From a virus, in the IMG/VR virus record IMGVR_UViG_3300045988_128600: a stretch of 64,000 nucleotides of DNA; one strand, given 5' to 3'. The notes under the pieces were generated by a model, which made no database searches, was not told where the DNA came from, and was given only the letters and a program-made list of their open reading frames with translations. How positions within the stretch are numbered: the first letter of the stretch is position 1; each line of letters starts with the position of its first letter. Of this stretch, positions 10,180 through 44,165 are shown one piece after another. Both the position numbers and the translations under genes were made by a program.

Positions 10180-10230
10180 AGTTTATTCTCCTATCTTTTA
10201 TCTTATATTTATATTATAACATTATTTTTT

Positions 10231-27558: not shown

Positions 27559-27878
27559 ATGAATACCTCTTTTCTTATTTTCTATATATATTATATACTT
27601 TTTTTTTAAAAATGTCAAGATTTTTTTGGACGAAAACATACGCGTGAAACAATGTAAGGGCGAAGCAATTTTTAATTAATCATAAAGGCATATGATCCTA
27701 CGCGAGCTTAAAAAAGTCTTTTTTTACTATTATAACATATTTTTTATAAAAAGTCAATTTTCGGGATTTTTTTGGGCCATATGGAGAGGTGCTAGAAGTA
27801 TGAAAAATTTTGCATATGGGCATACCGATCGGAAACTCGGCCCGCGACGTTCCACCGCGGGCCGGTCAATCCAGTGTA

Positions 27879-28493: not shown

Positions 28494-28654
28494 TATTATA
28501 TAAATTTTGGGATTTCATAATTTTCTATTTTTGTCCAATAATTTTTTTGCAAAATTTGCTAAACCTATAATTATTCCAAAATTCCGCCCGGAGCGTCAGT
28601 GATCGGGCGGTCCATTATACCACGTTTTCCGATCGGTGTCAATAGGTAAAATGC

Positions 28655-28685
28655 ACAAAAAAATCAGCAGGTTTTAGTCAACCTG
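28655..28685 (-). terminator. rho-independent terminator
   Basis: cagcaggttgactaaaacctgctg hairpin followed by a T-run on the minus strand, 3' of gene 28698..29114. Confidence 0.55.
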
Positions 28686-28697
28686 CTGATTGAATAT

Positions 28698-29114
28698 TTA
28701 TGCAAGAAATGCGTTTACAATTTCATCGAACACCGTGGGGTTAATGTCCACATTAAAAAAACGGTCATTCTTGCGGAACGCTTTGGGGTATCGTCTAATC
28801 AGTTCCGCACGCAATGCGCTTTCCGCGCCTTCGGCGGGATAGTCCCCACAAGAACGGATTCGGTGAATTTCAACGCGCGTGATAGCATACTTTTTTGCAT
28901 ACTCGCCGATTTCATCACGCAAGCGCCCTATAACATCTTTTGCGGAAGTGCCTACTTTGTTAAATTCAAGTTCGTCGTTGTTGTAAAACTTAAAAAAGTA
29001 GACTGCTTGAACGTCTTTCAGGTTCTCGCCACAATTAGGCATAAACTCCATAGAAACGGGCGGTCTGCCGTCCTTAAATCGGCGTAGCTTAATAGTAATT
29101 TCTTCCATTAACAC
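28698..29114 (-). CDS. GIY-YIG-like domain protein (putative nuclease)
   Basis: VYFFKF-(10)-KVGTS, then downstream R and E residues; weak GIY-YIG-like pattern. It shares a 29-nt 5'-UTR element with gene 31390..32166. Confidence 0.4.
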   Translation of the reverse strand: MLMEEITIKLRRFKDGRPPVSMEFMPNCGENLKDVQAVYFFKFYNNDELEFNKVGTSAKDVIGRLRDEIGEYAKKYAITRVEIHRIRSCGDYPAEGAESALRAELIRRYPKAFRKNDRFFNVDINPTVFDEIVNAFLA

Positions 29115-29231
29115 AAAATCCTCTCTATTGATTGAGGTTTACCATCGTTCTCTCAACCATTATTTTTTGTACTTTTTTGCTTGTTTTCGGGTGAAAAACC
29201 GCATTTTTCAACGGTTTTTCACCCTTTTTTG

Positions 29232-29740: not shown

Positions 29741-30118
29741 TTAACGCGCCATGCGGAAGTAGGACTTGCGCTTGTCCACAATCTTTTCCACCTTGTTGGC
29801 GTCAATCATCTGACGCAGAAGAGCGGAAACGCGCTGGTTGGTGAGGTCGCCCAGATCGTCCACATTCTTAATGAGGTCGGTCACGGTATACAGCTTGTCG
29901 GGGTTTGCGGTCATTTCAGCAAGGATAATGTCCTTGTAGCCGTCGTTGGCAATCTGATTCGCGGTCGGCTTCTTATCGCCCGCGTTCTTCTTGGCGAGCA
30001 ATTCGATTTCGTGGTTGATAAACTCAACCATAGCAGGGTCAGCCTGGACCTCGGACAGCTTGAGCAGAGCCTCGAAACGGTCGCGCTTGGTGAGCTTCTT
30101 AACAGTAGAAGTAGACAT
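29741..30118 (-). CDS. hypothetical protein, paralog family A
   Basis: About 60% identical to 32307..32681 over its length; shares the HEIELLAKKNAGDKKPTA motif. Confidence 0.55.
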   Translation of the reverse strand: MSTSTVKKLTKRDRFEALLKLSEVQADPAMVEFINHEIELLAKKNAGDKKPTANQIANDGYKDIILAEMTANPDKLYTVTDLIKNVDDLGDLTNQRVSALLRQMIDANKVEKIVDKRKSYFRMAR

Positions 30119-30169
30119 AGTATCAATTCCTTTCTTTGGCGGTAGGTCGCTACCCTTTTGATATTATTG

Positions 30170-30198
30170 AGTATACCACACTTTAGAGTGCTTGTCAA
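30170..30198 (-). promoter_or_regulatory. sigma70-type promoter TTGACA-N17-TATACT
   Basis: Read from the minus strand; it drives gene 29741..30118. Confidence 0.55.
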
Positions 30199-30647
30199 GA
30201 GGTTTCGCAAACTTTTCACACGAATTACCGCCCCGACCTGACGGATAATTTATTGTTTGTTGATTCAATCTATTTGTCAGCGGAAAACCGCGTCAAGGAT
30301 AGTTGGTTCAATCAAACTCACTTTCGCGTTCAACGTTTGGCTTTACAACGTGGTGTATTATGTTTACTTCCTATACTTTCTCAAGGTCGCGCGCCCTCGG
30401 ATTTCTTGGGCTACTCCCTCTCGACATTTTCTATTGTAGCACACTCGCTGGGATTTGTCAAGAGGGAATTTCAAATTTCTTTGAAAACGGGTCAGTTACC
30501 GAGTTATCACACCCATCAGCGAAGCCGTTTGGCAATTCACTGTTCCCTCCTGACATTATTCATTATAGCAGATTGCCCGTAGATTGCAATTGACAAAATA
30601 ACCAAATTACGGGAAAAAATTTTCTTCATTTTTGTGCAACTTTTCTC

Positions 30648-30676
30648 TTGACAAAATTGGCGGGGTGTGGTATAAT
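30648..30676 (+). promoter_or_regulatory. consensus sigma70-type promoter TTGACA-N17-(TGg)TATAAT on the plus strand
   Basis: Perfect -35 and -10 hexamers with a 17-bp spacer and an extended -10. It points opposite to the flanking genes. Confidence 0.5.
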
Positions 30677-30683
30677 GGAAAAT

Positions 30684-30790
30684 TCGGACCGCTGCGTACG
30701 CTGGCGGTCCGCCCATTTTATCACAAAAATCCGCATTTGTCAATAGGCAAAATAAACAAAAAAAACTGCCCATTTTTGGGCAGTTTTTTA
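30684..30790 (+). ncRNA. candidate about 105-nt sRNA (repeat-family copy E1)
   Basis: It starts downstream of the consensus promoter with a GC stem-loop (cggaccgc...gcggtccg). An A/U-rich segment follows, then the terminator hairpin ctgccca-ttttt-gggcag and a T-run. Confidence 0.35.
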
Positions 30791-30791
30791 T

Positions 30792-31037
30792 TTAGTCCAG
30801 CAGGTTGATTTCGCCGGGAATTGCGAAAGAATCAGCGTTCAATGTGTAGTTCCAGCCCGTGGCAAAAAATTCAATCGTTCCACACTCTCTGACGTAATTG
30901 TCTACTGACCGCCGAACGTTGTTCCAGAGGTCAGTCTGTCGGCTTTCCGCTCGGGCTTCCTTGACTTCCTTTATTTGGGCGATGAGTTCGTCCAGTTCCT
31001 CGTCAGTCATGCAATTAAAATCTAAATCCATTTTCAA
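30792..31037 (-). CDS. hypothetical protein
   Basis: 81-aa ORF. Confidence 0.45.
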   Translation of the reverse strand: MKMDLDFNCMTDEELDELIAQIKEVKEARAESRQTDLWNNVRRSVDNYVRECGTIEFFATGWNYTLNADSFAIPGEINLLD

Positions 31038-31339
31038 AACTCCCTTTTAATGGCTTTTTCCCACGCTTCACGGCCGAACTTTCCCTCGCGGTCTAACTTC
31101 TTGCCAATGTCTTTTGCGGTCAGCAGGTCAAGCTCGTCCGCAATCTCATCTTCAAAGTTTACCCAAGAGTCGTAAGTCTGAATAATGAGAACTTCATCAG
31201 CTTCAAAGACGCCACCGCACTCAGCGCAGATAATATAATCGTGGTCGATTAAAATACCCATGTGAGGGTCATTATCATCAGGGACTACAAAAAGGACTTG
31301 TTTAGCGTTCATGTGAAACACCTCTTTCATTTGATACAT
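31034..31339 (-). CDS. hypothetical protein
   Basis: 101-aa ORF; the promoter at 31341-31369 lies directly upstream. Confidence 0.45.
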   Translation of the reverse strand: MYQMKEVFHMNAKQVLFVVPDDNDPHMGILIDHDYIICAECGGVFEADEVLIIQTYDSWVNFEDEIADELDLLTAKDIGKKLDREGKFGREAWEKAIKREF

Positions 31340-31340
31340 T

Positions 31341-31369
31341 GATTATACCATAGGGAATAGGATTTGTCA
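31341..31369 (-). promoter_or_regulatory. sigma70-type promoter TTGACA-N17-TATAAT
   Basis: On the minus strand the element reads gggcTTGACAaatcctattccctatggTATAATcaa. Confidence 0.55.
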
Positions 31370-31389
31370 AGCCCTATTCCCTATTTTTT

Positions 31390-32166
31390 TTAGCTCATGT
31401 TTATCATGGGATTTTCCTTAATGTTTCGCATGAGCGCACGCTGAAACTCGGTCGGCTTGGGGCGTTCCACCGTGGGAGTTTTGAAAAGGGACTTTTCCAT
31501 TTTCTTGTGCTGTCGGACGCAATAGCGCAGAATCTCAACTTCAATGAGAACATCTTCTAATCCCGTGTGGGATTCATCAAAGCTGTCCTTACCGCTGATA
31601 AAGCGATAGAGAATTTCTGCGGTGAAACGGAGCTGTCCGTTCTTGGTCTTGTAGCCGTTCTTTTCGCAATAGTCGCGGTAAGTGGGCATTTTGCCGATAA
31701 CCTGACGTGCCATTTTCAACGTGTCCCAAATTTCGAGGTCGTAGGGGAAGAAATAGCGATACTTGCTTTTCGTGTCCCATCTTTGTGCGTTGTTGCAGGC
31801 GTTAAGGTCGAACCGCATATTGTGAGCGCACACAAAAGAGCAGTTGTAGCGCTCGACACATTCGCAAAACGCAAGACGAATTTCGTAAAGGTCAGCCATA
31901 ATGCGAATGCCGTTTTGAATATCCTCGACATAGCGAGGAATCTTGTTGGCATAGTATGCGGACTGCATGAGGTCGCGTTCGTAGCAGAAAATGTCGCGAT
32001 TCACAAAGGAATGAGTTTCATAAACATTTCCCTTGGAATCAATGACTGCCCAGCCGAAGTCGTAGGGAAGCACATTTGACATATCCAGCTTATTACCGTC
32101 CTGAATGGTGTTTGCGGTTTCCGTGTCCAGCATAATGCCGTAGTTTTTGCGCCTATCAATACCCAT
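31390..32166 (-). CDS. DnaQ-like 3'-5' exonuclease (DEDDh)
   Basis: IMLDTETAN (Exo I), CAHNMRFDLN (Exo II) and HTGLEDVLIEVE (Exo III, H-x4-D) motifs. Confidence 0.6.
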   Translation of the reverse strand: MGIDRRKNYGIMLDTETANTIQDGNKLDMSNVLPYDFGWAVIDSKGNVYETHSFVNRDIFCYERDLMQSAYYANKIPRYVEDIQNGIRIMADLYEIRLAFCECVERYNCSFVCAHNMRFDLNACNNAQRWDTKSKYRYFFPYDLEIWDTLKMARQVIGKMPTYRDYCEKNGYKTKNGQLRFTAEILYRFISGKDSFDESHTGLEDVLIEVEILRYCVRQHKKMEKSLFKTPTVERPKPTEFQRALMRNIKENPMINMS

Positions 32167-32306
32167 TTTATCGTCTCCTATTGGAAAAGTAGATTGAGGT
32201 TTACCATCGTTCTCTCAACCTCTAAATATAGTATAGCACTTTGCTATTGGTTTGTCAACAGTTTTTTTTGTGGGGCAGGGGATTTTTTATCCCCTGCCCT
32301 TTTCCC

Positions 32307-32681
32307 TTATGCGTGGGAGAAGTAGGACTTGCGCTTGTCAACCGTCTTGACAACCGTGCCTGCATCAATCATCTGACGCAGAAGAGCAGAAACACGCTGG
32401 TTGGAATACTCCGCAAGCTCGGGAACGCCCTTGATGAGGTCGGTCACGGTATACAGCTTGTCAGGGTTTGCGGTCATCTCGTCCAGAATGACCTGCTTCA
32501 CAGCGTCATTCTCCATCTGCTTGGCCGTGGGCTTCTTATCGCCCGCGTTCTTCTTGGCGAGCAATTCAATCTCATGCTCGATGAACGCCACCATGTCAGG
32601 ATTTGCCTGAACCTCGCTCATTTTGAGCAGAGCCTCGAAACGGTCGCGCTTGGTGAGCTTCTTAACAGTAGAAGTAGACAT
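32307..32681 (-). CDS. hypothetical protein, paralog family A
   Basis: Paralog of 29741..30118 and 11203..11619. Confidence 0.55.
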   Translation of the reverse strand: MSTSTVKKLTKRDRFEALLKMSEVQANPDMVAFIEHEIELLAKKNAGDKKPTAKQMENDAVKQVILDEMTANPDKLYTVTDLIKGVPELAEYSNQRVSALLRQMIDAGTVVKTVDKRKSYFSHA

Positions 32682-33184
32682 AGTATCAATTCCTTTCTGG
32701 TTTTTGAGACTGTCCTTGTCTTTGATGTAGTTATTATATCATAGGTGGCGCAGGTTGTCAATAGGTTTTGCAAATTTTTTTTAGGGGCGGTCGCGAGGTT
32801 TATTACTATACATCTTGTTTATACCTACCTTTATCTATAATCATAAACCAATTCATTTTACTAAACCAAATTAGTCTTTAAGGCGGTGGACGAGCATTAG
32901 AAGTCATCTTGTTTTTACCTCTCTCATTTGATGTATTCATTATACCCTACGTAGAACGGTTTGTCAAGGGGTTTTTCAAACTTTTTTTTTGAAAGTTTGT
33001 TCGGCACGCCACGCTTGGAACATTCCGTCGGATTTTGGTATAATGGTCAAGGGAACTGCCTTTCCGCAGGTCTTACTCTTTCCTCCTGACATTATGTAGT
33101 ATAGCAGATTGGTAATGATTTGTCTATTGGCAGAATGACCAAATAACGGGAAAAAATAAAATTGAAATTTGTGCAAAATTTCTC

Positions 33185-33213
33185 TTGACAAAAATGCTGG
33201 CAGGGTGTATAAT
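33185..33213 (+). promoter_or_regulatory. consensus TTGACA-N17-TATAAT promoter on the plus strand (repeat copy E2)
   Basis: Same layout as the promoter at 30648-30676. Confidence 0.45.
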
Positions 33214-33219
33214 GGTAAA

Positions 33220-33330
33220 TTCCGGTCGCAACATGCGTTAGCGACCGGCCAATTTTATCACATTTAAGGAACTTTGTCAATAGTCAAAGTAAACAAAAAA
33301 ATCTCCCCATTTTTGGGAAGATTTTCTTTT
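33220..33330 (+). ncRNA. candidate sRNA (repeat-family copy E2)
   Basis: GC stem-loop ccggtcgc...gcgaccgg, then the terminator tctcccca-ttttt-gggaaga and a T-run. Confidence 0.3.
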
Positions 33331-33604
33331 AGCCAATCACATTGACCTCGGTTTTGATAGGCGTTACCATCTTGTCGCGCGGGAACTCGCGAACCTGACC
33401 CGTTTCAAGATTCACCGCGTAGCAATACTGCGGGCCTCTCGACCGGACAAACGGCGTGTTGTTGTTGCTGTCAATTTTAAGATACATTCCCATACCGCTA
33501 CCATTGGAACGCAGAGTGGTGAACGTGCCACCGCTGAGAACGTTGATAATCTGGAACTGACCCTTAGTGCCAAAATTTACTTTCATTTTTATTTCCTCTT
33601 TCAA
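33329..33604 (-). CDS. hypothetical protein
   Basis: 91-aa ORF. Confidence 0.4.
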   Translation of the reverse strand: MKEEIKMKVNFGTKGQFQIINVLSGGTFTTLRSNGSGMGMYLKIDSNNNTPFVRSRGPQYCYAVNLETGQVREFPRDKMVTPIKTEVNVIG

Positions 33605-33915
33605 AATTCTTCTAAGAAGTGAATCGGTTTATGATTTGGTCTGAAAAATGCCATTCCCTCGGTATAAAGAGAATTAAACAAATCCGCAGACACTTCAAAC
33701 CATTCCGTGCCACTAATGCGATTGCCCAACTCACTTAAAGTCAGATGACAAGAATTTTCCATGTCTCGGCTTCCAGCGCAAGTGCTACGCATTATTGCTT
33801 TTGGATTATGGGTGTAATAGGTTTTACGACGATTTGCAAGGTTTTTAGTGCCGTCAGAATAGCCAACTTTAACCAAATGACTATTGGCTAAATTATCCAT
33901 CATCAAATACAGCAT
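33601..33915 (-). CDS. hypothetical protein; weak T5orf172/GIY-YIG-like signature
   Basis: VKVGYSDGTKNLANRR loosely resembles the T5orf172 motif; the resemblance is weak. Confidence 0.3.
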   Translation of the reverse strand: MLYLMMDNLANSHLVKVGYSDGTKNLANRRKTYYTHNPKAIMRSTCAGSRDMENSCHLTLSELGNRISGTEWFEVSADLFNSLYTEGMAFFRPNHKPIHFLEEF

Positions 33916-33922
33916 TTTTACC

Positions 33923-34066
33923 TCACAACAGATGGGTATTGACCCAATCTGCGGTCACAAGTCCGATTTCCTTAGAGACAACCGTTTCATAGCGGTAATT
34001 ACCGCCATCAGTTCGTCCGGTCACTTTGGCGAGAACGCCAAGGGTAAGCCAAAAATAAGGCATCAT
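33923..34066 (-). CDS. small hypothetical protein (47 aa)
   Basis: AAAGGGG SD then ATG, immediately after the stop of the upstream TM peptide. Confidence 0.3.
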   Translation of the reverse strand: MMPYFWLTLGVLAKVTGRTDGGNYRYETVVSKEIGLVTADWVNTHLL

Positions 34067-34071
34067 TTTTA

Positions 34072-34278
34072 TCACCCCTTTGAACCGACCGTAAAGAGCG
34101 AACGCAGAAGCAACAGAACAATCCAAATTGCGAGCGCCAGCTTCCACGAGAACACGATGACGAAAGTGCCGATTGCGGTGATACCAAGGGCGGGAAGAAG
34201 CCAACAGAGAAGCCAAACCAGACCAGAGGTAAGCAGGAACGAAATTGCGAGAGACAGCAGAATCAAAAGAACAAACAT
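34072..34278 (-). CDS. small membrane protein (2 TM)
   Basis: Consensus promoter at 34309-34337, then SD and ATG; strongly hydrophobic. Confidence 0.5.
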   Translation of the reverse strand: MFVLLILLSLAISFLLTSGLVWLLCWLLPALGITAIGTFVIVFSWKLALAIWIVLLLLRSLFTVGSKG

Positions 34279-34308
34279 TTTATTTTTTCCTTTTCATTTG
34301 ATGTATTT

Positions 34309-34337
34309 ATTATACCATTGGAGTAGGGCTTTGTCAA
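34309..34337 (-). promoter_or_regulatory. sigma70-type promoter TTGACA-N17-TATAAT
   Basis: On the minus strand the element reads gggcTTGACAaagccctactccaatggTATAATaaa. Confidence 0.55.
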
Positions 34338-34834
34338 GCCCTTTTCTCCAAAAGTTCCGAAAGTTTTTCGATAATGTTTACTGTGGTCGGGTCAATGGTA
34401 GCGCCCAAGTGCCAACCATTCCGAACCTTTTCATTATCGTCAACCAAGATGGACACGTCATAGCGGTCGCGCACGCTGTCGGCCTTAGTCGCGCCATACT
34501 GGACGCCGTGGAAGTGGTCATAGTGGAAGCCCTGTTCTTTAAGCCACGCGCGCTTTGCTTCACGCACGAGGTTTTTGTATTCCTCGCTCGAATCCTTAGA
34601 GAGCCAAGTAATGATATTGATTTCCCAGCCCTCGGCGCGGAGAAGTTCGCAAACCTCATTCAATTCAGCCATGTCACACATGGGGACGGCAGTTCGATAG
34701 GGCTTAGGGTTTTCCGAACGGAGAAGCGCGAGCCAATCCTTGACGCCGTAGAGGTCAGCGATAGTGCCGTCCATGTCAAAGTTAATGGAGCGTCGAGTGG
34801 CCACAACGTGGGACTTGATGTAAGTGATTTTCAT
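34334..34834 (-). CDS. HAD-superfamily 5'(3')-deoxyribonucleotidase-like phosphatase (NT5C family)
   Basis: INFDMDGTIADL matches HAD motif I (DxDG) as found in dNMP phosphatases. ILVDDN supplies motif III. Confidence 0.55.
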   Translation of the reverse strand: MKITYIKSHVVATRRSINFDMDGTIADLYGVKDWLALLRSENPKPYRTAVPMCDMAELNEVCELLRAEGWEINIITWLSKDSSEEYKNLVREAKRAWLKEQGFHYDHFHGVQYGATKADSVRDRYDVSILVDDNEKVRNGWHLGATIDPTTVNIIEKLSELLEKRA

Positions 34835-34846
34835 AGGTGCTTACCT

Positions 34847-34875
34847 CTTTCCTTTACTATGCTTGTATTATACCA
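34847..34875 (-). promoter_or_regulatory. consensus sigma70-type promoter TTGACA-N17-(TGg)TATAAT
   Basis: tgtcaa at 34870-34875 and attata at 34847-34852 on the plus strand; the spacer is exactly 17 bp. Confidence 0.6.
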
Positions 34876-34926
34876 CTATTGGATTTGCTTGTCAAGTGTT
34901 TTTTTTCAAAATTTTCGCGGTCTTTC

Positions 34927-35070
34927 TTAATACACGAAAGATAAGAAATTAAGCAAAATCAACACAGGAATAGCGTAAACGATATTGAAAGAGTCCCACC
35001 CGAGACTTTCACAGGAATAAGCAAAAATAAAGCCAAAAACGAGGCCGAAAATGCCGATTAAAATAATCAT
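34927..35070 (-). CDS. small membrane peptide (about 47 aa)
   Basis: GGAGGA SD then ATG (MIILIGIFGL...). Confidence 0.4.
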   Translation of the reverse strand: MIILIGIFGLVFGFIFAYSCESLGWDSFNIVYAIPVLILLNFLSFVY

Positions 35071-35330
35071 TCTAAATCCTCCAAGTGGCCGAAATGTTCG
35101 TTGATATGCCATTCAAGATAGGCATTAGTCGCAATCTGAATTTCTCTATCCAGCCAGTCATAAAAATCCTCGGGGTCGCGGGCCATGCGTTCATCAATGA
35201 TATCTTTGAGAGAAACGCGGTGAGCAAGGAATTCCGAAATATCAAGAGAATCCATAGAAGAAAGAAGCTCTTCCGCACATTCTCCGCGAGTAGAGAACTT
35301 TTCAGTAGAAAAATCGTGAGTGTAATACAT
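35067..35330 (-). CDS. hypothetical protein
   Basis: 87-aa ORF. Confidence 0.4.
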   Translation of the reverse strand: MYYTHDFSTEKFSTRGECAEELLSSMDSLDISEFLAHRVSLKDIIDERMARDPEDFYDWLDREIQIATNAYLEWHINEHFGHLEDLE

Positions 35331-35352
35331 TGTTTGTACCTCCTATGAGTAT

Positions 35353-35607
35353 TCAGAAAAGAATTTTACCAACAGTAGAGAAATTATTATCATCATTGAT
35401 ATAATATTCCTCTTCGTAGGTATTATACTCAATACTCCCAAAAGCGGAACAATAGTTCTTGATTGCTTCTACGACTTCATTCCACGCGGTCTCCTTTGCA
35501 CAAAGCCGTCTATGTTCAAGCTCATCGGCGATAACCAACTGTAAATGAGACAGGTCTTCGGCAGAGATTGTCTCAACAGGATTAGTAAGTAAATTCTTAA
35601 TTTCCAT
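35353..35607 (-). CDS. hypothetical protein
   Basis: 84-aa ORF. Confidence 0.4.
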   Translation of the reverse strand: MEIKNLLTNPVETISAEDLSHLQLVIADELEHRRLCAKETAWNEVVEAIKNYCSAFGSIEYNTYEEEYYINDDNNFSTVGKILF

Positions 35608-35725
35608 TTTATGTTCCCCTTTCCTTTACGGTAATCATAGTATAGCAGATTATTACATTCTTGTCTATTGGCAAAATGCCCAAATTCGGGAAAATAATTA
35701 GTTGGACTTTTGGCTAAATTTCCTA

Positions 35726-35754
35726 TTGACAAATTGCTGAGATGGTGGTATAAT
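35726..35754 (+). promoter_or_regulatory. consensus TTGACA-N17-TATAAT promoter on the plus strand (repeat copy E3)
   Basis: ATTGACAaattgctgagatggtgGTATAATgg. Confidence 0.45.
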
Positions 35755-35760
35755 GGAATT

Positions 35761-35870
35761 TCCGGCCGTGGCAGGCGCAAACGGCCGGTCATTTTATCAC
35801 ACTATTGGATTTTTGTCAATAGGCAAAATAGCTAAAAAATGAGGTGAATTTTCACCTCAAATTTTATCTG
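35761..35870 (+). ncRNA. candidate sRNA (repeat-family copy E3)
   Basis: GC stem-loop ccggccg...cggccgg, then the hairpin gaggtgaa-tttt-cacctc. Confidence 0.3.
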
Positions 35871-36045
35871 TAATAACGGGTAGTAATGGTTTTGAAAATC
35901 TGATAGATATTTTCATCTTCCATCAACTTTTGGATAAAAGCATCAGCTTTTTCTTCGGAATCAAAACTGATTCGATTTTCATAATACTGGTCCCAAGGAT
36001 TTTTACCGCTGTAATCAACCCGGAATGTCTTTTCAATTTCCATTT
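35866..36045 (-). CDS. small hypothetical protein (59 aa)
   Basis: ATG ORF with SD; it lies below the 60-aa cutoff of the ORF track. Confidence 0.3.
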
Positions 36046-36120
36046 TATTTGCCCCTTTTCTTTGATTCTTTTATTGTAGCACAAGGGACTTGTTTTGTCA
36101 AGTCCCTTGTGCTATTTTTT

Positions 36121-36573
36121 TTAACGTTCAGATACAATGCTGAGGTAGCGGACAATCATGTCCATTTCGCAACCCTTGTCTTGCTGGTCGCAAACCGCAT
36201 AACCCACAAGGTCGCCGTCCGCACAAATCGGGTAAACGCCATAAGTGTTATTGAAAACAAACGGCTTTCTTTCAAATTCCCATTGGGTCGGAACGTAGGC
36301 CGGATAGTTTTCCATACCCCGCAGTTTCACGGTAGTATCATAGATTGCGATAGGACGCAGACCGGAATTCGATGCCATTGTAATAGCGGTTCGCAGAGCT
36401 TCTTCGGTCAGCGAACCAAGCACCGAATACCTCTTGAAGCAAACGCAGTCGTTGTCTTCAATGAAGATTTCGAGCGGATCGCCCTCGCGAATCTTCAAAG
36501 TCCGGCGAATCTCTTTCGGAATGACCACACGTCCAAGGTCATCAATTCTGCGGACAATACCAGTAGCTTTCAT
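36121..36573 (-). CDS. AbrB/SpoVT-family (swapped-hairpin) DNA-binding regulator
   Basis: The N-terminus MKATGIVRRIDDLGRVVIPKEIRRTLKIREGDPLEIF matches the AbrB N-domain consensus. About 100 further aa follow at the C-terminus. Confidence 0.65.
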   Translation of the reverse strand: MKATGIVRRIDDLGRVVIPKEIRRTLKIREGDPLEIFIEDNDCVCFKRYSVLGSLTEEALRTAITMASNSGLRPIAIYDTTVKLRGMENYPAYVPTQWEFERKPFVFNNTYGVYPICADGDLVGYAVCDQQDKGCEMDMIVRYLSIVSER

Positions 36574-36637
36574 TTTAATTTTCCCCTTTCATTTGATACG
36601 TTAAGTATAGCAGAATAAAAGGCTTTTGTCAAGCCCT

Positions 36638-37117
36638 TTATTCAAGATTTTTGCTTTCGTAAGCAGAAATTTTTCCGTTGCAGGTATGCGCGATTTCCTT
36701 AACTGCTTTTGTCTGCTCTTGCGTGGAACAGTAGCAATTAAACATAATCCACTTACCCGCATAGAAATAATTACACGGAATGTCATGGTCAGTTACCATT
36801 AACTTCACAATATCGGCGTTATAGTCCGCGGAAACAGCAAATTCAATTTTCCATAGCTTATCTTTACGCGCTTTCTCTTCAATCCACTTGACAAGGTAAA
36901 CGCCTACGAAATTACAAATGGCAGTAATAGCCATTTTCAACCAGATGGGCATACCGTCCGCGGAAGTCAGCACAATCACATAGGAATAAAAACCATAAGT
37001 GATAGCATTGATAAAAGATGCGCTAAACTTCCCACCGTTGACAGTCAAGATGCTTTTGATAGTTGACAGAATCACATTCACCGCCGTGCAAAGCGCGAAC
37101 AGAAGAATTGTATTCAT
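36638..37117 (-). CDS. membrane protein
   Basis: Several TM helices in the N-terminal half. Confidence 0.45.
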   Translation of the reverse strand: MNTILLFALCTAVNVILSTIKSILTVNGGKFSASFINAITYGFYSYVIVLTSADGMPIWLKMAITAICNFVGVYLVKWIEEKARKDKLWKIEFAVSADYNADIVKLMVTDHDIPCNYFYAGKWIMFNCYCSTQEQTKAVKEIAHTCNGKISAYESKNLE

Positions 37118-37362
37118 TCTACCACCTCAATATCGCAGTAAATACAGTCGGTAATATCGACGTATTCCTCAAAGTTCATTCTTTTATCGTCGCGGTGTGT
37201 AAAGTCGATGTAGGCATCTTTACCGCGAAGATTATTCTCTTCATTATATGCGCGAGTGGCATTGTCAAAAGCCTTAATAGCGTCAGCTTCATTATAAACC
37301 ACCACTTCTTTGACTTCCAGAGCATCATACCAAATAGTATATTTCTTTTTCATTATTATCAC
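37114..37362 (-). CDS. hypothetical protein
   Basis: 82-aa ORF. Confidence 0.4.
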   Translation of the reverse strand: MIIMKKKYTIWYDALEVKEVVVYNEADAIKAFDNATRAYNEENNLRGKDAYIDFTHRDDKRMNFEEYVDITDCIYCDIEVVE

Positions 37363-37577
37363 CCTTTCCTTTTTCTATTATAATAATATCATATTATAAT
37401 AGAAATGTCAATAGAGAGTTTTTAATTTACTCTTTTAATTTTTCTAATAAGTCATCAGCACATTCATAGCTGATACTTCTGCGGTCGCACTCGTTGGACA
37501 AAGGACAACAAGCGCAGTCGTTAAAGGTTTCCGTCCAAGCGCGCAACCAGTCAATCAAGCGCAAAGTATTAACTTCC

Positions 37578-37880
37578 TCATACATTGTTTTCAGTCTCCT
37601 TTACTCGGACAAAAAAGACCTTGTTATAGATTTTCGTCGCTTTAAGGTCAATCCAAAAATACACATTTCCACATACTCGATAGATTTTACAAGTCTCTCC
37701 GCTGACCTTTTTGACTTCCTCAAATTTCTCTGGCGTAGTGGGGTGGAAAACCGTCAGTTTAAGGAATATGCAATAGAAAGATAAAGGAACAAAGCCGATA
37801 ATCAGAGCAATCCATGCGAGAACGTCAGTTAAAGTGTTTTCCCCATTCGCACCATTCGTCGGTGATTGTAGCGAACGCAA
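37578..37880 (-). CDS. hypothetical membrane protein
   Basis: Contains a TM segment. A 32-aa hydrophobic mini-ORF (37825-37923) lies just upstream on the same strand. Confidence 0.35.
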   Translation of the reverse strand: MRSLQSPTNGANGENTLTDVLAWIALIIGFVPLSFYCIFLKLTVFHPTTPEKFEEVKKVSGETCKIYRVCGNVYFWIDLKATKIYNKVFFVRVKETENNV

Positions 37881-38150
37881 TACCCACGCAAAATGCGAGA
37901 ATCAACCAATACCATGCCACCATTATTTTATTCCCCCTTTATTTGTTGTATACATCTTACCACATTATAGGATTTTTGTCTATTGGCATTTTACACAAAA
38001 ATTCGTGCGAAAATTTGTTGAACTTACCTCTTGACAAAAAACTCGGCGCGCCACAATCGTCCGCGCGCCGACAATTTTATCACATTCAAGGAACTTTGTC
38101 AATAGTGAAAGTAAACAAAAAAAATCACCCAAATTGGGTGATTTTTTCAT

Positions 38151-38342
38151 TTAATTTTCTACGGCTTCGAGGTCGGCGAGAATGGGAACGAGCTTGTCTT
38201 CAAGAAGCGCGACACGCTCAATCATTTCATTTGCCTCTGCACCACCCGACGGGTATCTCTTCTGAATACCGTATCGAGCCATTCTGCACACCGTTTCAAC
38301 AACCTCGCTCAGTTTCTCATTTTTCATTTTTCTTATCTCCAT
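38151..38342 (-). CDS. hypothetical protein
   Basis: 63-aa ORF. Confidence 0.4.
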   Translation of the reverse strand: MEIRKMKNEKLSEVVETVCRMARYGIQKRYPSGGAEANEMIERVALLEDKLVPILADLEAVEN

Positions 38343-38438
38343 TCAATTTATTTTTGGAAAGGGTGGCGGTTGTTTCAGGCACAACCGCCAAAGCCATAGG
38401 AAAGGGGGAGAAAAAACACGAACAAAAGTTCGGTTTTG

Positions 38439-38690
38439 TCAAGAGATAATGAGTTCTGCACCGTAGATGGGGAGAACCAAGTGTTTTGGACTGAAACAGT
38501 CAAGAGTGTAATTATCCAAATTGAGAGCGTTCCATTCATCTGCTCCGGTGTCGTCATTGACCTCTAAAGAGGTTTTAATGTAATAAGTGTCTCCGGTGGT
38601 GGCAGGGGCTTGAAAAACCATACCCTCGGGAATATCTTCAAACGGAACAAGTTTATTGCTATGTTTAACAGTAATTTTCATTTCATTCAC
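38439..38690 (-). CDS. hypothetical protein
   Basis: 83-aa ORF. Confidence 0.4.
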   Translation of the reverse strand: MNEMKITVKHSNKLVPFEDIPEGMVFQAPATTGDTYYIKTSLEVNDDTGADEWNALNLDNYTLDCFSPKHLVLPIYGAELIIS

Positions 38691-38838
38691 CCTTTATAAT
38701 AGTATTTGTAAGCCCATTCGATGATTTCATGGCTTGTGGTAGTCCATTCCTCTTTGGGGCTATCGAACTTTTCCGCATACTTTTTGATGTAGTTATTATA
38801 CTCCATGCGTGCGGTGTCGTATGCTCCAATAGCCACAA

Positions 38839-39039
38839 TTAAAGCGTGCTTCGCTTTTCGGCGTCAGAGACGGCTTTCTTGCGGTCAGCGCCATCGGGGT
38901 AGAGGTTAATCACTCCTACGCGCGTAATGACTTGCCTTGTCTTTTCATAAAGGCGGTCGCGTGTTTCCCATACTTCATAAAGCGCATCGTCCGCGCGACT
39001 TTCATAAGGGTTGAAAGGCTTCTTTTTCTTACCGAACAT
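38839..39039 (-). CDS. small basic protein
   Basis: Start placed at MFGKKKKPF; the longer TTG-called ORF overlaps the upstream gene. Confidence 0.35.
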   Translation of the reverse strand: MFGKKKKPFNPYESRADDALYEVWETRDRLYEKTRQVITRVGVINLYPDGADRKKAVSDAEKRSTL

Positions 39040-39367
39040 TTTTCTTTTTCTCCTTTTCCTGTTTATTCCACATTCTATCAAAGAACGCATTTGCGAGAAC
39101 ACGCTTGTAAAGGTTATCAGGCATGGGGCGCTCGCCGTGCTTATTTCTCCAAATCGCGGTGATTTTATCAATATCCGCGATATAGGCTGTAATGAGCGTG
39201 CCGTCCTTGGCGCTACGGATAAGAAGAATACCGGTTGTAGTGATAGTGTAGAGAACATCGTCCTCAACGCTGTCGATATACGGTTCGCCGATTCCTACAT
39301 TATCGTAGATGAAGAGCAGGCGGTCAATGCGGTCTTGCGTAGCATGTTTTGACATTTTGATAAGCAT
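39029..39367 (-). CDS. hypothetical protein
   Basis: Start moved to the ATG (MLIKMSK) downstream of promoter 39405-39433 and the AAGAGG SD. Confidence 0.4.
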   Translation of the reverse strand: MLIKMSKHATQDRIDRLLFIYDNVGIGEPYIDSVEDDVLYTITTTGILLIRSAKDGTLITAYIADIDKITAIWRNKHGERPMPDNLYKRVLANAFFDRMWNKQEKEKKKNVR

Positions 39368-39404
39368 TTGTTTTACCTCTTTCTTTTCCTCTTGGATTGA
39401 TTGT

Positions 39405-39433
39405 ATTATACCATATGGGGAGGGGCTTGTCAA
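39405..39433 (-). promoter_or_regulatory. sigma70-type promoter TTGACA-N17-TATAAT
   Basis: On the minus strand the element reads gggcTTGACAagcccctccccatatggTATAATaca. Confidence 0.55.
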
Positions 39434-39450
39434 GCCCCTTTAATATAATT

Positions 39451-39597
39451 GTTCCCCATTGTGGTAGCGCTCATATTCCGCTTCAAGGAAGTCGAGAATA
39501 GTTTCAAAGTCGTCTGCGTCTGCGGGGTCTGCAAAGACCTTTTCAAGGACTTCGTTAGTGTGTCTGTTGTAAACTCGAACCATATCCATTTTACTTA
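39451..39597 (-). CDS. small acidic protein (about 49 aa)
   Basis: Promoter 39620-39648 (TTGACA-N17-TATAAT), AAGAGG SD, then ATG (MDMVRVYN...). Confidence 0.35.
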
Positions 39598-39619
39598 CCT
39601 CTTTCTTGATTGTATATGT

Positions 39620-39648
39620 ATTATATCATGCGAAAGGGCTTTTGTCAA
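39620..39648 (-). promoter_or_regulatory. sigma70-type promoter TTGACA-N17-TATAAT
   Basis: tgtcaa at 39643-39648 and attata at 39620-39625 on the plus strand. Confidence 0.55.
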
Positions 39649-39794
39649 GCCCTTTTTATCAGAAATGATAATTTCTGATGATGGCGTCGAACTTGGGAGC
39701 ATATTTAATTTCCATGGTGTTTCTCCCTTTCCTTTATTGTATCTTTATTGTAGCATATAGGGCTTGTTTTGTCAAGCCCTATATGCAATTTTTT

Positions 39795-40103
39795 TTAGCA
39801 GTAAGCCAGATTCCCGCGTGCCCAGCCATATACGCTGATTTGATTGCACGCCTTGCCAATTTCAAGCGCCTGCTTCTTGGTCTGCACCCTCTTGGACTTG
39901 TCAACATAATAGATGCCGTTCGCAAGCCACACACCGCAGTTTCCGTCGAAGTCCTTAACCGCGTTGATAGCTTCGCGGGCGGTCTTACATTCAACGCCGT
40001 TGGTAGCGACCTGCCAGCCGGACTTGTAGTTGACTTTTTTGCCATATTTGAGGGTCATGCCGTCATTTTCTGCGAGCTTACGAATAGAACGAATGTTAAT
40101 CAT
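39795..40103 (-). CDS. hypothetical protein
   Basis: 102-aa ORF with a long 5' leader that includes a GC stem-loop (repeat copy E5). Confidence 0.45.
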   Translation of the reverse strand: MINIRSIRKLAENDGMTLKYGKKVNYKSGWQVATNGVECKTAREAINAVKDFDGNCGVWLANGIYYVDKSKRVQTKKQALEIGKACNQISVYGWARGNLAYC

Positions 40104-40368
40104 GTTGTAAATCCCTTTCCGGTTTGGTAGGTTTTCCTTCCCTTACTGTGATTATAGTATAGCACCGATTCGGGATTCTGTCTATTGACATTATGCACAA
40201 AGATTTGCCATAAAAATTGTTGAACTTGCCTATTGACACAAAATTCCGGCCGCGCCTGGCGTGCACGGCCGGCCGATTATACCACAAAGTTTTGAAATTG
40301 TCAATAGTCAAAGTAAACAAAAAAATCTCCCCATTTTTGGAGAGATTTTTAATTCAAAAAATTTAATT

Positions 40369-40668
40369 TTAACCATCAACATAAACGATAAGGACATCAT
40401 TTTTGGCTTTCAAACCGCTGACCGGTAGTCCCAGCACCCATTCTTCGCTTGCGCCTAAAACATCGCCGTTCAGAGTCATGCGACCTTTGCGGTCTTTGAG
40501 ATAGCGACCGCAAGTGTTTTCATTTATCACTTCGATGCCGTTCCCCTCATAGAACATCAGCGCGCCTTTTACCAGACCAATCACATTTTTAACCATGCCC
40601 AAAGTCATTTTTGTCAACCTCTTTCGTTTTAATGTTGTTCCCCTTGGAACAATTATAGTATAGCACAA
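40369..40668 (-). CDS. hypothetical protein
   Basis: 99-aa ORF. Confidence 0.4.
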   Translation of the reverse strand: MCYTIIVPRGTTLKRKRLTKMTLGMVKNVIGLVKGALMFYEGNGIEVINENTCGRYLKDRKGRMTLNGDVLGASEEWVLGLPVSGLKAKNDVLIVYVDG

Positions 40669-40760
40669 GGTGTAGCAAAAGTCAACTTAAATTTTGGGAT
40701 TACCAATAGGTAAAATGTATAAAAAACTCGGCAGGATTTTGTATGTCCTGCCGAGTTTTT

Positions 40761-40955
40761 TTAGTCTTCCCAACTCTCGATGACTTCGCCGGTCATTGCA
40801 TCGATGATGTCAACCGAGAGGACGTTGTCTGCGTCCATGAACTTCTGCCCGAGGGCATATGCGTTTTCCTGTCCTGCGACAGACACTTCATAGCGATAGC
40901 GGTTGTTATCGCCAGCCTTGTAATTGTAGTAGTTGATAGAAACAATAAATAACAT
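40761..40955 (-). CDS. hypothetical protein
   Basis: 64-aa ORF. Confidence 0.35.
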   Translation of the reverse strand: MLFIVSINYYNYKAGDNNRYRYEVSVAGQENAYALGQKFMDADNVLSVDIIDAMTGEVIESWED

Positions 40956-41059
40956 TTGGTTTATCCCCTTTCTTTTTATACTCTTATTATACTATAGATT
41001 CAGGATTTGTCAATAGGTTTTTGAAAAAAGTTTGAAAAAAAATAAGGGCGTTTCCGCCC

Positions 41060-41317
41060 TTATTCTTCATAAATAATAATATTATTTTGTAGCAGTTTCA
41101 CGCGAGAATCTTCACAAAAGTGATAGGTAAAACTCACGGAGAGGTGTTTGAGAAATTCACGTCTCCATGTGCGGGACTTCGGCTCTAATTCAAAGAGAAT
41201 GTAAAGCGTTTCTTCTAACCGGTCGAGGAAGTTTTCAGTGTCCGCGACGTTGAATTTGCCCGCGAATTTCGGAATAGGATTAGAAGTCCCAACAGTAATA
41301 ATGTTGTAAGTTGTCAT
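41060..41317 (-). CDS. hypothetical protein
   Basis: 85-aa ORF. Confidence 0.4.
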   Translation of the reverse strand: MTTYNIITVGTSNPIPKFAGKFNVADTENFLDRLEETLYILFELEPKSRTWRREFLKHLSVSFTYHFCEDSRVKLLQNNIIIYEE

Positions 41318-41509
41318 GGAAAAATCTCCTTTTCATTTGATGTATTTATTATACATGATAGTGTGGAACTTGTCAATACTTAAAATAGAAAAAAGAGAAG
41401 TTTTTCAACTTCTCTTTTTCAGTTTCTTTTCTGCCCATTCAATGAGCGCGCCCGCGGCGATTGTCCCAAGGTAAATGAAAAGTAAAACTAAACCGTCATG
41501 CATGCTCAT

Positions 41510-41692
41510 TTAATATTCCTCCACATACTCAGTAAAAACAAGCTCCCAGTCAGGGCCAAGATCCGGAGCTTTGCAGTATCGTGACTGTCGAATGTCATGC
41601 TCATTAGTAATTTTGTTGATAAACTCGAATTCATACATTTTTATTATCTCCTTTTCTTTACTGTACCAATAGTATAGCAGATAACAGGGCAT
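41510..41692 (-). CDS. hypothetical protein
   Basis: 60-aa ORF. Confidence 0.35.
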   Translation of the reverse strand: MPCYLLYYWYSKEKEIIKMYEFEFINKITNEHDIRQSRYCKAPDLGPDWELVFTEYVEEY

Positions 41693-41726
41693 TTGTCAAT
41701 ACCATTTATAAAAAAATGTACGAGGT

Positions 41727-42044
41727 TTAATCCTCGTACATTTCCATTAACGATTTGATTTTTTCGATTGCATTTTCAATTTCTTCTACATAGTCGGCCT
41801 GCTCCTCATTTGCGCGCATGGCCTGTTCATATGCGTCATAGATAGCTTCGCACTGTTCACGGGTGTAGTCTTCTTCTGGAGCGTGTTCCATGGTGACGAC
41901 TGTCGTCCAAGCGAGCGTTTCCTTATCGTCAAGGTCATCGGCTTTTTCCGTGGCAGTGGTAAGCTCATGTTCGAGGCGCGTTTTTTCGAGCGAGAGGGTC
42001 TTGAGAAAATCCTTGTTAGTCATTGTGGTGTATCTCCTTTTCAT
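41727..42044 (-). CDS. hypothetical acidic/coiled-coil protein
   Basis: 105-aa ORF. Confidence 0.4.
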   Translation of the reverse strand: MKRRYTTMTNKDFLKTLSLEKTRLEHELTTATEKADDLDDKETLAWTTVVTMEHAPEEDYTREQCEAIYDAYEQAMRANEEQADYVEEIENAIEKIKSLMEMYED

Positions 42045-42338
42045 TTGATACCTTTATTATACCACTTCTGGACTGAATGTCAATAGGTTTTTGAAAAAAA
42101 TATTTATTCATCAGGGCTGTATAAATATTCATGTATAAATATTCATTTTCGGGTGTATAAAGGTGACTGGCATAATGCACAAAATGGTTTCAAAATTTTT
42201 GTGCAACTTGCCTATTGCAAAACTCGGCCTGCTGACTTGCGCAACGCACGTCAGCGGGCCGGCCAAGCCAATGTGTGAATATGCAATGAATATTCATATG
42301 AATATTTATGAATCAAAATGAAAAATGGAGAGAGAGAC

Positions 42339-42701
42339 TTAATAAGCCTCTCTCCACACCTTGATTATTTCATCATCTGCTATATCATCTGTGTCATTAT
42401 CGTTTATCCACAAAAGCAGAAAATCATTATCATCAATGGTCATATTCTCAACTTCCCATTGGTTGCCACGTTCGTCCAGTAGCGTGATGGTGTTACCATT
42501 TCGGGAAGCGACCTCTGCACCGATAAAGCGTATGCTTCCTTTCTCTGTGCCAGCGCCGCACCATTCATCTAATGCGGTGAGGTCGTAGGACTGGGGTGCT
42601 TCCTCACAGGCTTCCGCGGTTGTGTGGTCGTGGAATCCGAAGAAAGACACGGAGAGAATGATGGCAATGGCCATGGTGATGATTTTGGAAACGTTTTTCA
42701 T
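42339..42701 (-). CDS. secreted protein (signal peptide)
   Basis: The N-terminus MKNVSKIITMAIAIILSVSFFG is hydrophobic and is followed by a cleavage-like site. Confidence 0.45.
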   Translation of the reverse strand: MKNVSKIITMAIAIILSVSFFGFHDHTTAEACEEAPQSYDLTALDEWCGAGTEKGSIRFIGAEVASRNGNTITLLDERGNQWEVENMTIDDNDFLLLWINDNDTDDIADDEIIKVWREAY

Positions 42702-43629: not shown

Positions 43630-43911
43630 AATTAAAAACCCCTTGTAATGTATTTGCCGTTCGGTATTGTGTCGCTCGGCATGGTCAAATAGTAGCAGAT
43701 TCGACCACGGAATACAAGTGGCGGATTGCACAAAGATTTGTTTGTACGGGGGTCTGTTTTTGTGCAGTTTGACGGGCGCGGCACCCTTGCATCATACCTT
43801 TGTATTTTTATTCACTCAAGAATGAATAAAATCTGCATAGAGGGGGGGTGTATTTCAGGAAAAATAAATTTTTATTTATTGTTTTTTCTTTTGCCTGGTC
43901 AAAACGCAATC

Positions 43912-44085
43912 TAAATCAATTTTCAATTTCAAATTACGAAGAATAATTTTCAATTTCAAATTACGAAGAATAATTTTCAATTTCAAATTACGAAGAATAA
44001 TTTTCAATTTCAAATTACGAAGAATAATTTTCAATTTCAAATTACGAAGAATAATTTAAAATTTCAAATTACGACTTCTTTTTTC
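43912..44085. repeat. 28-bp tandem repeat TTTTCAATTTCAAATTACGAAGAATAAT x5.5
   Basis: Five exact copies plus a degenerate sixth, placed between the divergent leftward and rightward transcription units. Confidence 0.85.
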
Positions 44086-44165
44086 TACCTCTTTTAGGCT
44101 TCTCACCCCACATAAAAGTGTATAATCCAGAAGTAGCAGAATATGTAGCTTTCTGCTGATACTTT

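Follow-up and report, generated by a model that had tools for sequence, protein, structure and literature searches.

A conserved hairpin motif in repeated promoter and terminator cassettes of an uncultured gut phage

What do repeated intergenic cassettes do among the early genes of a phage? The question is raised by IMG/VR record IMGVR_UViG_3300045988_128600, a 64,000-nucleotide stretch of uncultured gut phage DNA (the window, meaning the whole stretch analyzed) whose early-gene region is divided by related cassettes of promoters, a GC-rich hairpin, and a terminator. An earlier note had placed six such cassettes there and had proposed them as a family of candidate small RNAs (sRNAs) or RNA regulatory elements. 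All six are present, about where it had placed them, and a seventh full copy, E0, can be added. The hairpin inside these promoter/terminator cassettes is, as judged from sequence comparison, a new and well-supported motif. For the cassettes as a whole, the reading favored here, with confidence somewhat short of even, is that they would act as compound transcription-control modules at early-unit boundaries of a virulent-type Firmicutes (Clostridia) phage, in which the hairpin would serve as a promoter-proximal stem-loop and an antisense promoter, P+, would compete with the sense promoter, P1.

Related cassettes divide the early-gene region

Seven related cassettes (E0-E6) and one lone hairpin lie between 27.8 and 42.4 kb, with partial cassette copies at 40640-40760 and about 41340-41420. 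Their features are as follows.

27838-27864: isolated GC hairpin (Hx) belonging to this family; it adjoins the P1 of E0 in relatives, here it is parted from E0 by an AT-rich insertion
28541-28700, minus strand: cassette E0; hairpin 28584-28610; P1 28642 to 28614 (TTGACA, 17 nt, TATAAT, with TG); sense terminator T0 28664-28689; no functional P+, the plus-strand boxes being 13 nt apart
30540-30800, minus strand: cassette E1; P2 30589 to 30562; hairpin 30685-30711; P1 30743 to 30715; bidirectional terminator T1 30766-30783
30648-30676, plus strand: P+ of E1 (TTGACA, 17 nt, TGgTATAAT; 12/12); predicted RNA from about 30682 to 30790, ~105 nt
33075-33335, minus strand: cassette E2; P2 33126 to 33098; hairpin 33222-33248; P1 33280 to 33252; T2 33302-33321
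33185-33213, plus strand: P+ of E2 (12/12, without the TG extension); predicted RNA ~105 nt if stopped at the leaky T2
35615-35870, minus strand: cassette E3; P2 35667 to 35639; hairpin 35762-35788; P1 35819 to 35791; T3 35840-35859, sense only
35726-35754, plus strand: P+ of E3 (12/12, with TG); next competent plus-strand terminator 36077-36114
37920-38160, minus strand: type II cassette E4; P2 37982 to 37954; hairpin 38044-38070, continuing on the minus strand with GAGUUUUUU; P1 38102 to 38074; T4 38125-38141
38031-38036, plus strand: leftover TTGACA of E4, no -10 box
40130-40360, minus strand: type II cassette E5; P2 40184 to 40156; hairpin 40246-40272; P1 40304 to 40276 (12/12); T5 40326-40345
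40233-40238: leftover TTGACA of E5
42140-42360, minus strand: partial relative E6; upstream TTGTGCAA/TTGCAA block; 37-nt hairpin 42225-42261; T6 42325-42359; no P1, no P+

Described in gene direction, that is, along the minus strand, a cassette follows the stop codon of the upstream gene and opens with terminator T, an A-run, and a TTGTGCA/TTTAC-type block. P1 comes next (CTATTGACAA, a 17-nt spacer, TGaTAAAAT or TATAAT), then 2-4 nt, the GC hairpin, and AAUUU or AGUUUUUU; only E1-E3 then carry P+, as its reverse complement. Next, a conserved TCCCGAAATT/TTGTGCA-type block leads into a second promoter, P2 (TAGACA or TTGCAA, a 17-nt spacer, then TGCTATACT or TGCTATAAT), a leader with a ribosome-binding site (RBS), and the gene. 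All cassette promoters are paralogous members of a single "super-consensus" family (TTGTGCAA-type upstream block, CTATTGACAAA, 17-nt spacer, TGnTATAAT, then GG), and P2 transcripts carry a conserved Shine-Dalgarno (SD)-like AAUAAUGUCAGGAGGGA near their predicted 5' end. E4-E6 correspond to E1-E3 minus the ~24 nt that carried the P+ -10 box, and they keep a plus-strand TTGACA 6-7 nt ahead of the hairpin.

The block "ttgtcaata," read in the earlier note as the -35 of a minus-strand promoter running into the hairpin, is indeed that of P1. The conserved "ttttatcac" and "ttgtcaatag(g/t)caaa..aaaaaaa" are likewise present but are explained as the P1 extended -10, -35, and upstream A/T block. Features ascribed to all six copies are shared by E1-E5, with E6 only a partial relative, and the hairpin, thought to sit in a gene leader in E4 and E5 only, lies in the P1 leader throughout E0-E5. 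Similar GC hairpins outside the six were found at 27838-27864 and 28584-28610, the latter being that of E0.

The pattern TTTTATCAC-N12-TTGTCAATAG, allowing at most 3 mismatches, gave 10 matches against 0.03 expected, and 92 promoter-like sites were counted in the cassette region, where shuffles gave 37 ± 6. Mapping yielded 27 near-consensus minus-strand promoters, three perfect plus-strand promoters, and a sense terminator at every cassette; the three are the only 12/12 plus-strand promoters in 17 kb and occupy the identical relative position in E1-E3. All cassette elements are restricted to 15 kb of the genome.

That region forms part of a minus-strand block (28-43.7 kb) of small, mostly unknown genes whose G+C is above that of the rest of the window. 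Structural genes occupy the plus strand from 45 kb onward, and a tRNA scan found no tRNA genes in the window. The structural proteins resemble those of Enterococcus, Lactococcus, and Bacillus siphophages, and one virion protein shares 40-45% identity with proteins from Enterococcus EF1-like, Lactococcus, and Bacillus phages. Contigs with the same cassettes were binned with metagenome-assembled genomes (MAGs) of Clostridia, Oscillospiraceae, and Lachnospiraceae; these bins make a gut Firmicute the most likely host. DNA searches, near and distant, of 50,697 cultured-phage records returned no cassette match.

The GC hairpin varies as a selected structure would

The covariance check that the earlier note had proposed was carried out on 36 sequences chosen via the P1 promoter. 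Hairpin columns were paired in 90.5% of cells, compared with 28-43% when the partner column was slid, and changes on both sides were seen in 8 of the 10 hairpin pairs. Double-change cells numbered 60, against 18.5 in shuffles, and none of 500 shuffles attained the observed value. Watson-Crick pairs account for 93% of all stem pairs in 80 unique cores. Comparison of E1 and E2 with their close orthologues points the same way: the flanks are 92-96% identical and the hairpin loop only 57-69%, while the stems carry compensatory double substitutions, such as CGGACCGC/GCGGTCCG to CGGCCCGC/GCGGGCCG. By this pattern of variation the GC hairpin is a selected structure.

The same data bear on the idea that the cassettes are mere duplicated promoter and terminator modules with a functionless hairpin. 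The majority of the conserved blocks are indeed promoter or terminator elements, but the compensatory changes, found both in close orthologues and in distant phages, the retention of Watson-Crick pairing across the unique cores, and the fixed distances to both promoters contradict that explanation and make it hardly credible.

Terminator strength was scored with the d'Aubenton-Carafa d, taking values above 0 as competent. In sense orientation, d is +18 to +50 for the T hairpins. Every GC hairpin in the window has a negative d on both strands: E4, the highest of all, reaches -5.7 and E5 -15.6 on the minus strand, and E1-E3 lie at -36 to -63. Family medians are -30 to -47 over both strands, and these negative scores led to rejection of the hairpin as a canonical terminator.

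A weaker version of that proposal is that the hairpin is a back-up terminator or attenuator behind T for sense transcription, with P1 starting within the stem so that its own transcripts escape. Plus-strand AAA at -5 to -3 of the hairpin, retained in every cassette class, provides a minus-strand U-run after the hairpin; E4 and E5 are near threshold; and the upstream gene in relatives L156 and L157 has this hairpin as its terminator. On the other side, the minus-strand median d is -30 to -44, none of 62 type I hairpins scores above 0, two purines part the U-run from the stem, and T alone reaches its high scores. This role is considered rather improbable.

The hairpin accompanies either promoter in related phages

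Relatives were collected by pattern scans of viral contigs and of genome contigs, followed by nhmmer. These searches gave ~200 cassette copies in related uncultured gut (Clostridia-associated) phage contigs, reducing to 138 unique cassettes, of which 62 have both P+ and P1, 52 P1 only, 10 P+ only, and 14 neither promoter. That the hairpin is kept with P1 only, with P+ only, or with both ties it to promoter starts and not to any one RNA. Family geometry is tight: most hairpins have a stem of 8 bp and a loop of 11 nt, and the hairpin lies 7-8 nt from the P+ -10 box and 2-4 nt from that of P1. P1 matches 11-12 of 12 consensus positions in 114/114 copies. P+ is strongly constrained, being 12/12 in 67 of 72 unique copies, and retains an AAAWTGCTGG spacer motif; the perfect promoters noted earlier in E1-E3 are 12/12 and antisense in all three and kept in distant relatives, the TG extension being absent from E2.

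P+ runs antisense to its neighboring genes at every locus whose coding strand is clear (an ORF-length test left the strand ambiguous at most loci), and it heads no open reading frame (ORF). A role as an mRNA promoter was rejected, since no ORF or RBS lies downstream and neighboring genes converge on it. Nor is P+ a by-product of P1, because P+, hairpin, and terminator also occur as stand-alone units lacking P1, for example at positions 3220 and 6826 of relative L092. A scan for the hairpin only, free of promoter-pattern bias and taking paired hairpins in low-GC flanks, found 21 further hairpins: 7 with P+ only, 4 with P1 only, 2 with both, and 8 with neither.

Breakpoints between close relatives fall inside some cassettes (35837/36118; 30465/30543; the 27869-28603 insertion in E0) and elsewhere at other promoter modules. 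An example of module turnover beside the cassettes is given by a close relative, L051, in which a 1.6-kb replacement (9064-10659) stands at window position 39444-39697 and contains three small genes, a P+/hairpin unit without P1, and a short promoter-to-terminator minus-strand unit.

A compound control module is the favored reading

In the mechanism proposed for the cassettes, sense terminator T would close the upstream unit and transcription would restart from the tandem sigma-A-type promoters P1 and P2. Assuming the usual 6-8 nt between -10 box and start, P1 would start ~3 nt inside the stem and P+ 1-3 nt before it, and transcripts of both would open with a stable stem-loop (ΔG -14 to -21 kcal/mol) that may form a 5' cap against 5'-end-dependent decay by RppH and RNase J1. 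BsRppH demands a minimum of two unpaired 5' nucleotides, and 5' stem-loops and SD-like elements stabilize mRNA (PMC3997798); the SD-like element of the P2 leaders fits a general use of such 5' stabilizers. Because a short U-run follows the hairpin on either strand, it might additionally serve as a pause site or leaky terminator. The -10 boxes of P+ and P1 are ~38 bp apart, which would preclude simultaneous occupancy and let P+ throttle P1 through promoter competition and pause-enhanced occlusion; P+ would also oppose read-through coming from the upstream unit. Overlapping promoters compete, and occlusion between convergent promoters is enhanced by a weak terminator (PMC6593788). P+ would yield a noncoding antisense RNA whose length varies from ~100 nt in E1 and E2 to ~350 nt in E3.

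Several observations weigh against this interpretation. The start sites are predictions from promoter geometry. In type II cassettes P1 runs at once into a near-competent terminator (E4), which seems wasteful, and the retained plus-strand TTGACA without a -10 box is not accounted for. Eight of the 21 hairpins from the hairpin-only scan have no adjacent promoter, and some of these are the sense terminator of the upstream gene. The pairing also lacks a strand preference: G·U pairs in the 80 unique cores number 8 on the plus strand and 10 on the minus strand, so that neither strand is assigned as the one acting through RNA, and a role at the DNA level is possible. (An apparent plus-strand bias of 16 to 6 in the 36 sequences was gone in the larger set.) Finally, conserved stem positions and oriented loop bases would be unneeded in a protective hairpin and suggest sequence-specific recognition. 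The consensus of 61 unique 27-mers is stem C-S-G-S-S-C-G-Y, loop nnC(R)(K)nCGYnn, and stem R-C-G-S-S-C-S-G. Stem positions 1, 3, 6, and 7 and loop C3, C7, and G8, together with Y9, are conserved in an oriented pattern that is not mirror-symmetric, and stem positions 2, 4, 5, and 8 covary.

The oriented bases, the type II TTGACA, the entry of E4 P1 transcripts into a near-terminator, and the promoterless hairpins, all left unexplained, keep in play the alternative that the hairpin is the binding site of a phage or host factor on nascent RNA, in nut/put-like antitermination or other promoter-proximal control. Polymerases from P1 and P+ would then be modified or, as long as the factor is absent, would release short attenuated transcripts. 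In λ nut and HK022 put, too, an RNA hairpin lies just downstream of early promoters, with terminators farther downstream. The oriented conservation, amid positions that covary or drift, and the fixed place directly downstream of strong early promoters are as expected of such a site; each unit's strong sense terminator could be overridden by modified polymerases, and the type II hairpin followed by U4-U6 resembles the λ PR'-tR' short-transcript layout. Against it, the element is a single 27-nt hairpin without a boxA-like linear motif, boxA/boxB consensus, or two-stem put fold. It occurs in many copies per genome, and no partner is identified: no RNA-binding or antiterminator protein was recognized among the conserved neighboring proteins (DNA-binding-like and unknown only). 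Rfam searches gave no match in the window at the gathering score, and only terminator-driven look-alikes at a relaxed threshold, so the Rfam check suggested earlier yielded no family. Moreover, the units own promoters already, leaving no obvious requirement for read-through, and the P1 start is predicted inside the stem, which would truncate the site. On balance, factor binding is judged unlikely, if still a serious contender; a put-like or a processing site, both suggested in the earlier note, are possible.

A broader proposal, possible though doubtful, is that the oriented 27-nt AAAWT-CSGSSCGY-nnC...CGYnn-RCGSSCSG is an undescribed cis-regulatory motif at super-consensus promoter starts, recognized by a factor of phage or host either in RNA or in extruded DNA. 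It might govern the transcription of early genes throughout a large, uncultured clade of gut Clostridia phages via antitermination, timed shut-off, or programmed promoter competition, with the P+ hairpin RNAs as abundant functional products.

The P+ transcripts do not form a conserved sRNA design

Small antisense RNAs from face-to-face promoters are known, as in P22 sar and λ oop. It was proposed in the earlier note that E1-E3 encode trans-acting or antisense sRNAs of ~105 nt, each with a 5' hairpin that leads into an A/U-rich segment and then a terminator; hairpin and A/U-rich segment would be the functional body. Such an RNA is predicted for E1, stopping at T1 (plus-strand d +39), and less well for E2, where T2 is borderline and leaky in this direction (-12, against +33 in sense). 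T3 is poor on the plus strand (-39); because it works in sense only and the next plus-strand terminator is at 36077-36114, the E3 RNA is predicted to reach ~350 nt, antisense to a 59-aa gene at 35864-36043. The plus-strand terminators claimed for all three were therefore good in E1 only.

Arguments for an sRNA are the perfect and conserved P+, the stand-alone units without P1 in L092, and the folding of the E1-E3 plus-strand RNAs, which is far better than that of shuffles (z = -5.5 to -6.9; P1 leaders show no extra structure, z = -0.4 to -1.1). These low energies stem from the hairpin and T alone, however. Plus-strand terminators with d above 0 occur in 28/62 cassettes with both promoters (45%), 2/10 with P+ only, and 22/52 without P+; as P+ cassettes are no richer in them, termination of the P+ RNA is not specifically selected and a discrete sRNA is not the conserved design. 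Nor is there an independent seed, because the conserved blocks are the P1 -10, -35, and upstream A/T block and the 12 nt between conserved blocks vary freely among copies. The hairpin itself persists, with compensatory changes, in the 52 unique cassettes that lack P+, which argues for a function independent of the plus-strand RNA, and no Rfam family corresponds. Of the proposed sRNA family the promoter stands and a defined, conserved sRNA does not; that E1-E3 work as sRNA genes appears improbable.

A type I toxin-antitoxin or par-like pair was considered and rejected. Proteins upstream of E1, E2, E4, and E5 are hydrophilic (highest 19-aa hydropathy 0.4-1.4), as is the 59-aa product upstream of E3.

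Comparison with known systems

Every system compared fails at least one defining feature tested, and the PeSL cassettes of T4-type phages are the closest known kind (PMC2839356, PMC4122927). Both are repeated intergenic modules amid small, variable early genes, associated with indels between close relatives in PeSL and perhaps in the cassettes, and in both a stem-loop terminator immediately precedes an A/T-rich block and a sigma-70-type promoter close to consensus, followed by an SD and start codon. That layout recurs here, where each of T0-T5 (sense d +18 to +50) is followed by an A-run and P1 (11-12 of 12). The two differ in lacking sequence homology and in phage group and host phylum, and PeSL lack a conserved hairpin on the downstream side of the promoter, as well as any convergent antisense promoter or second promoter in tandem.

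With 5' stabilizers such as the E. coli ompA and B. subtilis aprE leaders and the phage SP82 polypurine stabilizer (PMC3997798), the cassettes would share a stable stem-loop 0-3 nt from the predicted 5' end, a Firmicute setting with 5'-end-dependent decay, and, in the P2 leaders, an SD-like element near the 5' end. Here, by contrast, one palindromic hairpin would serve two convergent transcripts, and its oriented loop and stem bases are superfluous for a mere cap. Convergent promoters such as 186 pR/pL and λ PR/PRE, with pause-enhanced occlusion at tR1 (PMC6593788, PMC5001618), likewise stand face-to-face and near enough to compete, with a weak terminator or pause element between them and a short antisense transcript (predicted in the cassettes). 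Those are single switch loci for lysis/lysogeny or one gene, whereas the cassette arrangement recurs 3-7 times in a genome, at the boundaries of units, and has two near-perfect promoters whose transcripts share only the hairpin.

The lack of G·U strand bias raises the further alternative of a DNA-level element, either an extruded hairpin or cruciform or, via pairing of the P+ and P1 arms, a single-strand promoter, priming, or recombination site. The literature on ssoA and F Frpo (PMC8860593, PMC5703833) offers parallels in an imperfect palindrome of ~110-120 nt whose stem bears -35 and -10 boxes, an apical hairpin that is rich in GC and has a conserved motif in its loop, and a Gram-positive host RNA polymerase. 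As single-stranded DNA (ssDNA), the cassettes E1-E5 fold into a long hairpin pairing both -35 and both -10 boxes (z = -3.0 to -4.9). The type II plus-strand TTGACA could pair with the P1 -35, G·U tolerance is absent on either strand, and mosaic breakpoints fall inside cassettes. Both cassette promoters are, however, complete in duplex DNA, and the arms are complementary only at the boxes (7/17 spacer positions in E2). The long sso/Frpo-like hairpin was accordingly rejected as the automatic product of two similar convergent promoters with unpaired spacers. The sso CS-6 motif, TAGCGT, is matched only partially and only in some copies. The elements are also limited to 15 kb of the genome, and we know of no single-stranded stage in tailed double-stranded DNA phages of this kind. 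A DNA-level function is thus considered very unlikely, and control of transcription at early-unit boundaries is still the interpretation preferred here.

Neighboring elements and genes

Other features of the early region accompany the cassettes. Separating hairpin 27838-27864 from E0 is a ~735-bp AT-rich insertion (27870-28603), missing in relatives L010 and L038, which carries a 113-aa ORF with helix-turn-helix (HTH) and NUMOD4 domains (28152-28493), a remnant of homing-endonuclease type. At the other end, E6 is flanked by AATATTCAT-type repeats; direct repeats TGTATAAATATTCAT and an 18-bp perfect palindrome AATATTCATATGAATATT lie around it at ~42105-42150 and 42270-42320. These are operator-like and may mark a master control region of the early block. 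Where the minus-strand early block and the plus-strand genes diverge, about seven tandem copies of a 27-bp unit AATTTTCAATTTCAAATTACGAAGAAT occupy 43891-44101; these iteron-like repeats are a candidate origin.

Hairpins with a T-run on the plus strand only directly follow minus-strand genes at 29189-29224, 31351-31383, 32273-32299, 36077-36114, and 39753-39786, several of them holding the -35 of the next sense promoter in the loop. Such elements would either block transcription in the antisense (plus-strand) direction or be an upstream A-tract joined to a hairpin.

A promoter with the conserved leader AAUAAUGUC(A/G)(G/A)GAGGGA, SD-like and near the 5' end, recurs at 30147-30183, 30410-30446, 30539-30575, and 33075-33111. 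Two of the four copies head ~300-nt stretches without a conserved ORF (30220-30540 and 32780-33075), which sit between E1/E2 and paralogous 124/125-aa genes, and a similar leader unit in L051 (9500-9620) finishes in a terminator. The ORF-poor stretches are candidates for small minus-strand RNAs or long structured leaders; the 229 nt downstream of E1 at 30200-30428 did not fold significantly better than shuffles (z = -1.9).

The paralogous 125- and 124-aa proteins (29741-30118 and 32307-32681; 77% DNA identity) are each encoded downstream of a type I cassette and belong to the early protein family most widely shared among cassette-bearing loci (38 loci). Their C-terminus looks winged-helix-like by eye, and searches of Pfam, PDB, and NCBIfam gave no match; they are candidate regulators. 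A 150-aa protein (36121-36573), conserved in 23 loci, has a SpoVT/AbrB-type N-terminal domain (TIGR02851, 1.7e-28; PF04014), which marks it as a host-like regulator of the transition state or of sporulation encoded among the phage early genes. An exact 29-nt minus-strand repeat, GGTTGAGAGAACGATGGTAAACCTCAATC, at 29130-29158 and 32193-32221, lies in the 5' leaders of a 138-aa gene (28698-29114) and a 258-aa DnaQ-like exonuclease gene (31390-32166).

Implications for early control in gut phages

If the roles proposed above hold, the cassette, in which a terminator and two promoters in tandem are combined with a shared hairpin at the start site and, optionally, an antisense promoter, would be a compact and portable design that insulates and tunes many small early operons of Gram-positive phages, reused hundreds of times in an abundant, uncultured human-gut phage group. 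Its covarying hairpin motif is defined and testable, and near-perfect sigma-A promoters with 5' elements may find use in Firmicute synthetic biology. The cassettes are also a possible Gram-positive counterpart of PeSL-mediated module shuffling in T4. Should the hairpin instead be a factor-binding site, it would represent a new layer of early transcription control in Clostridia phages.

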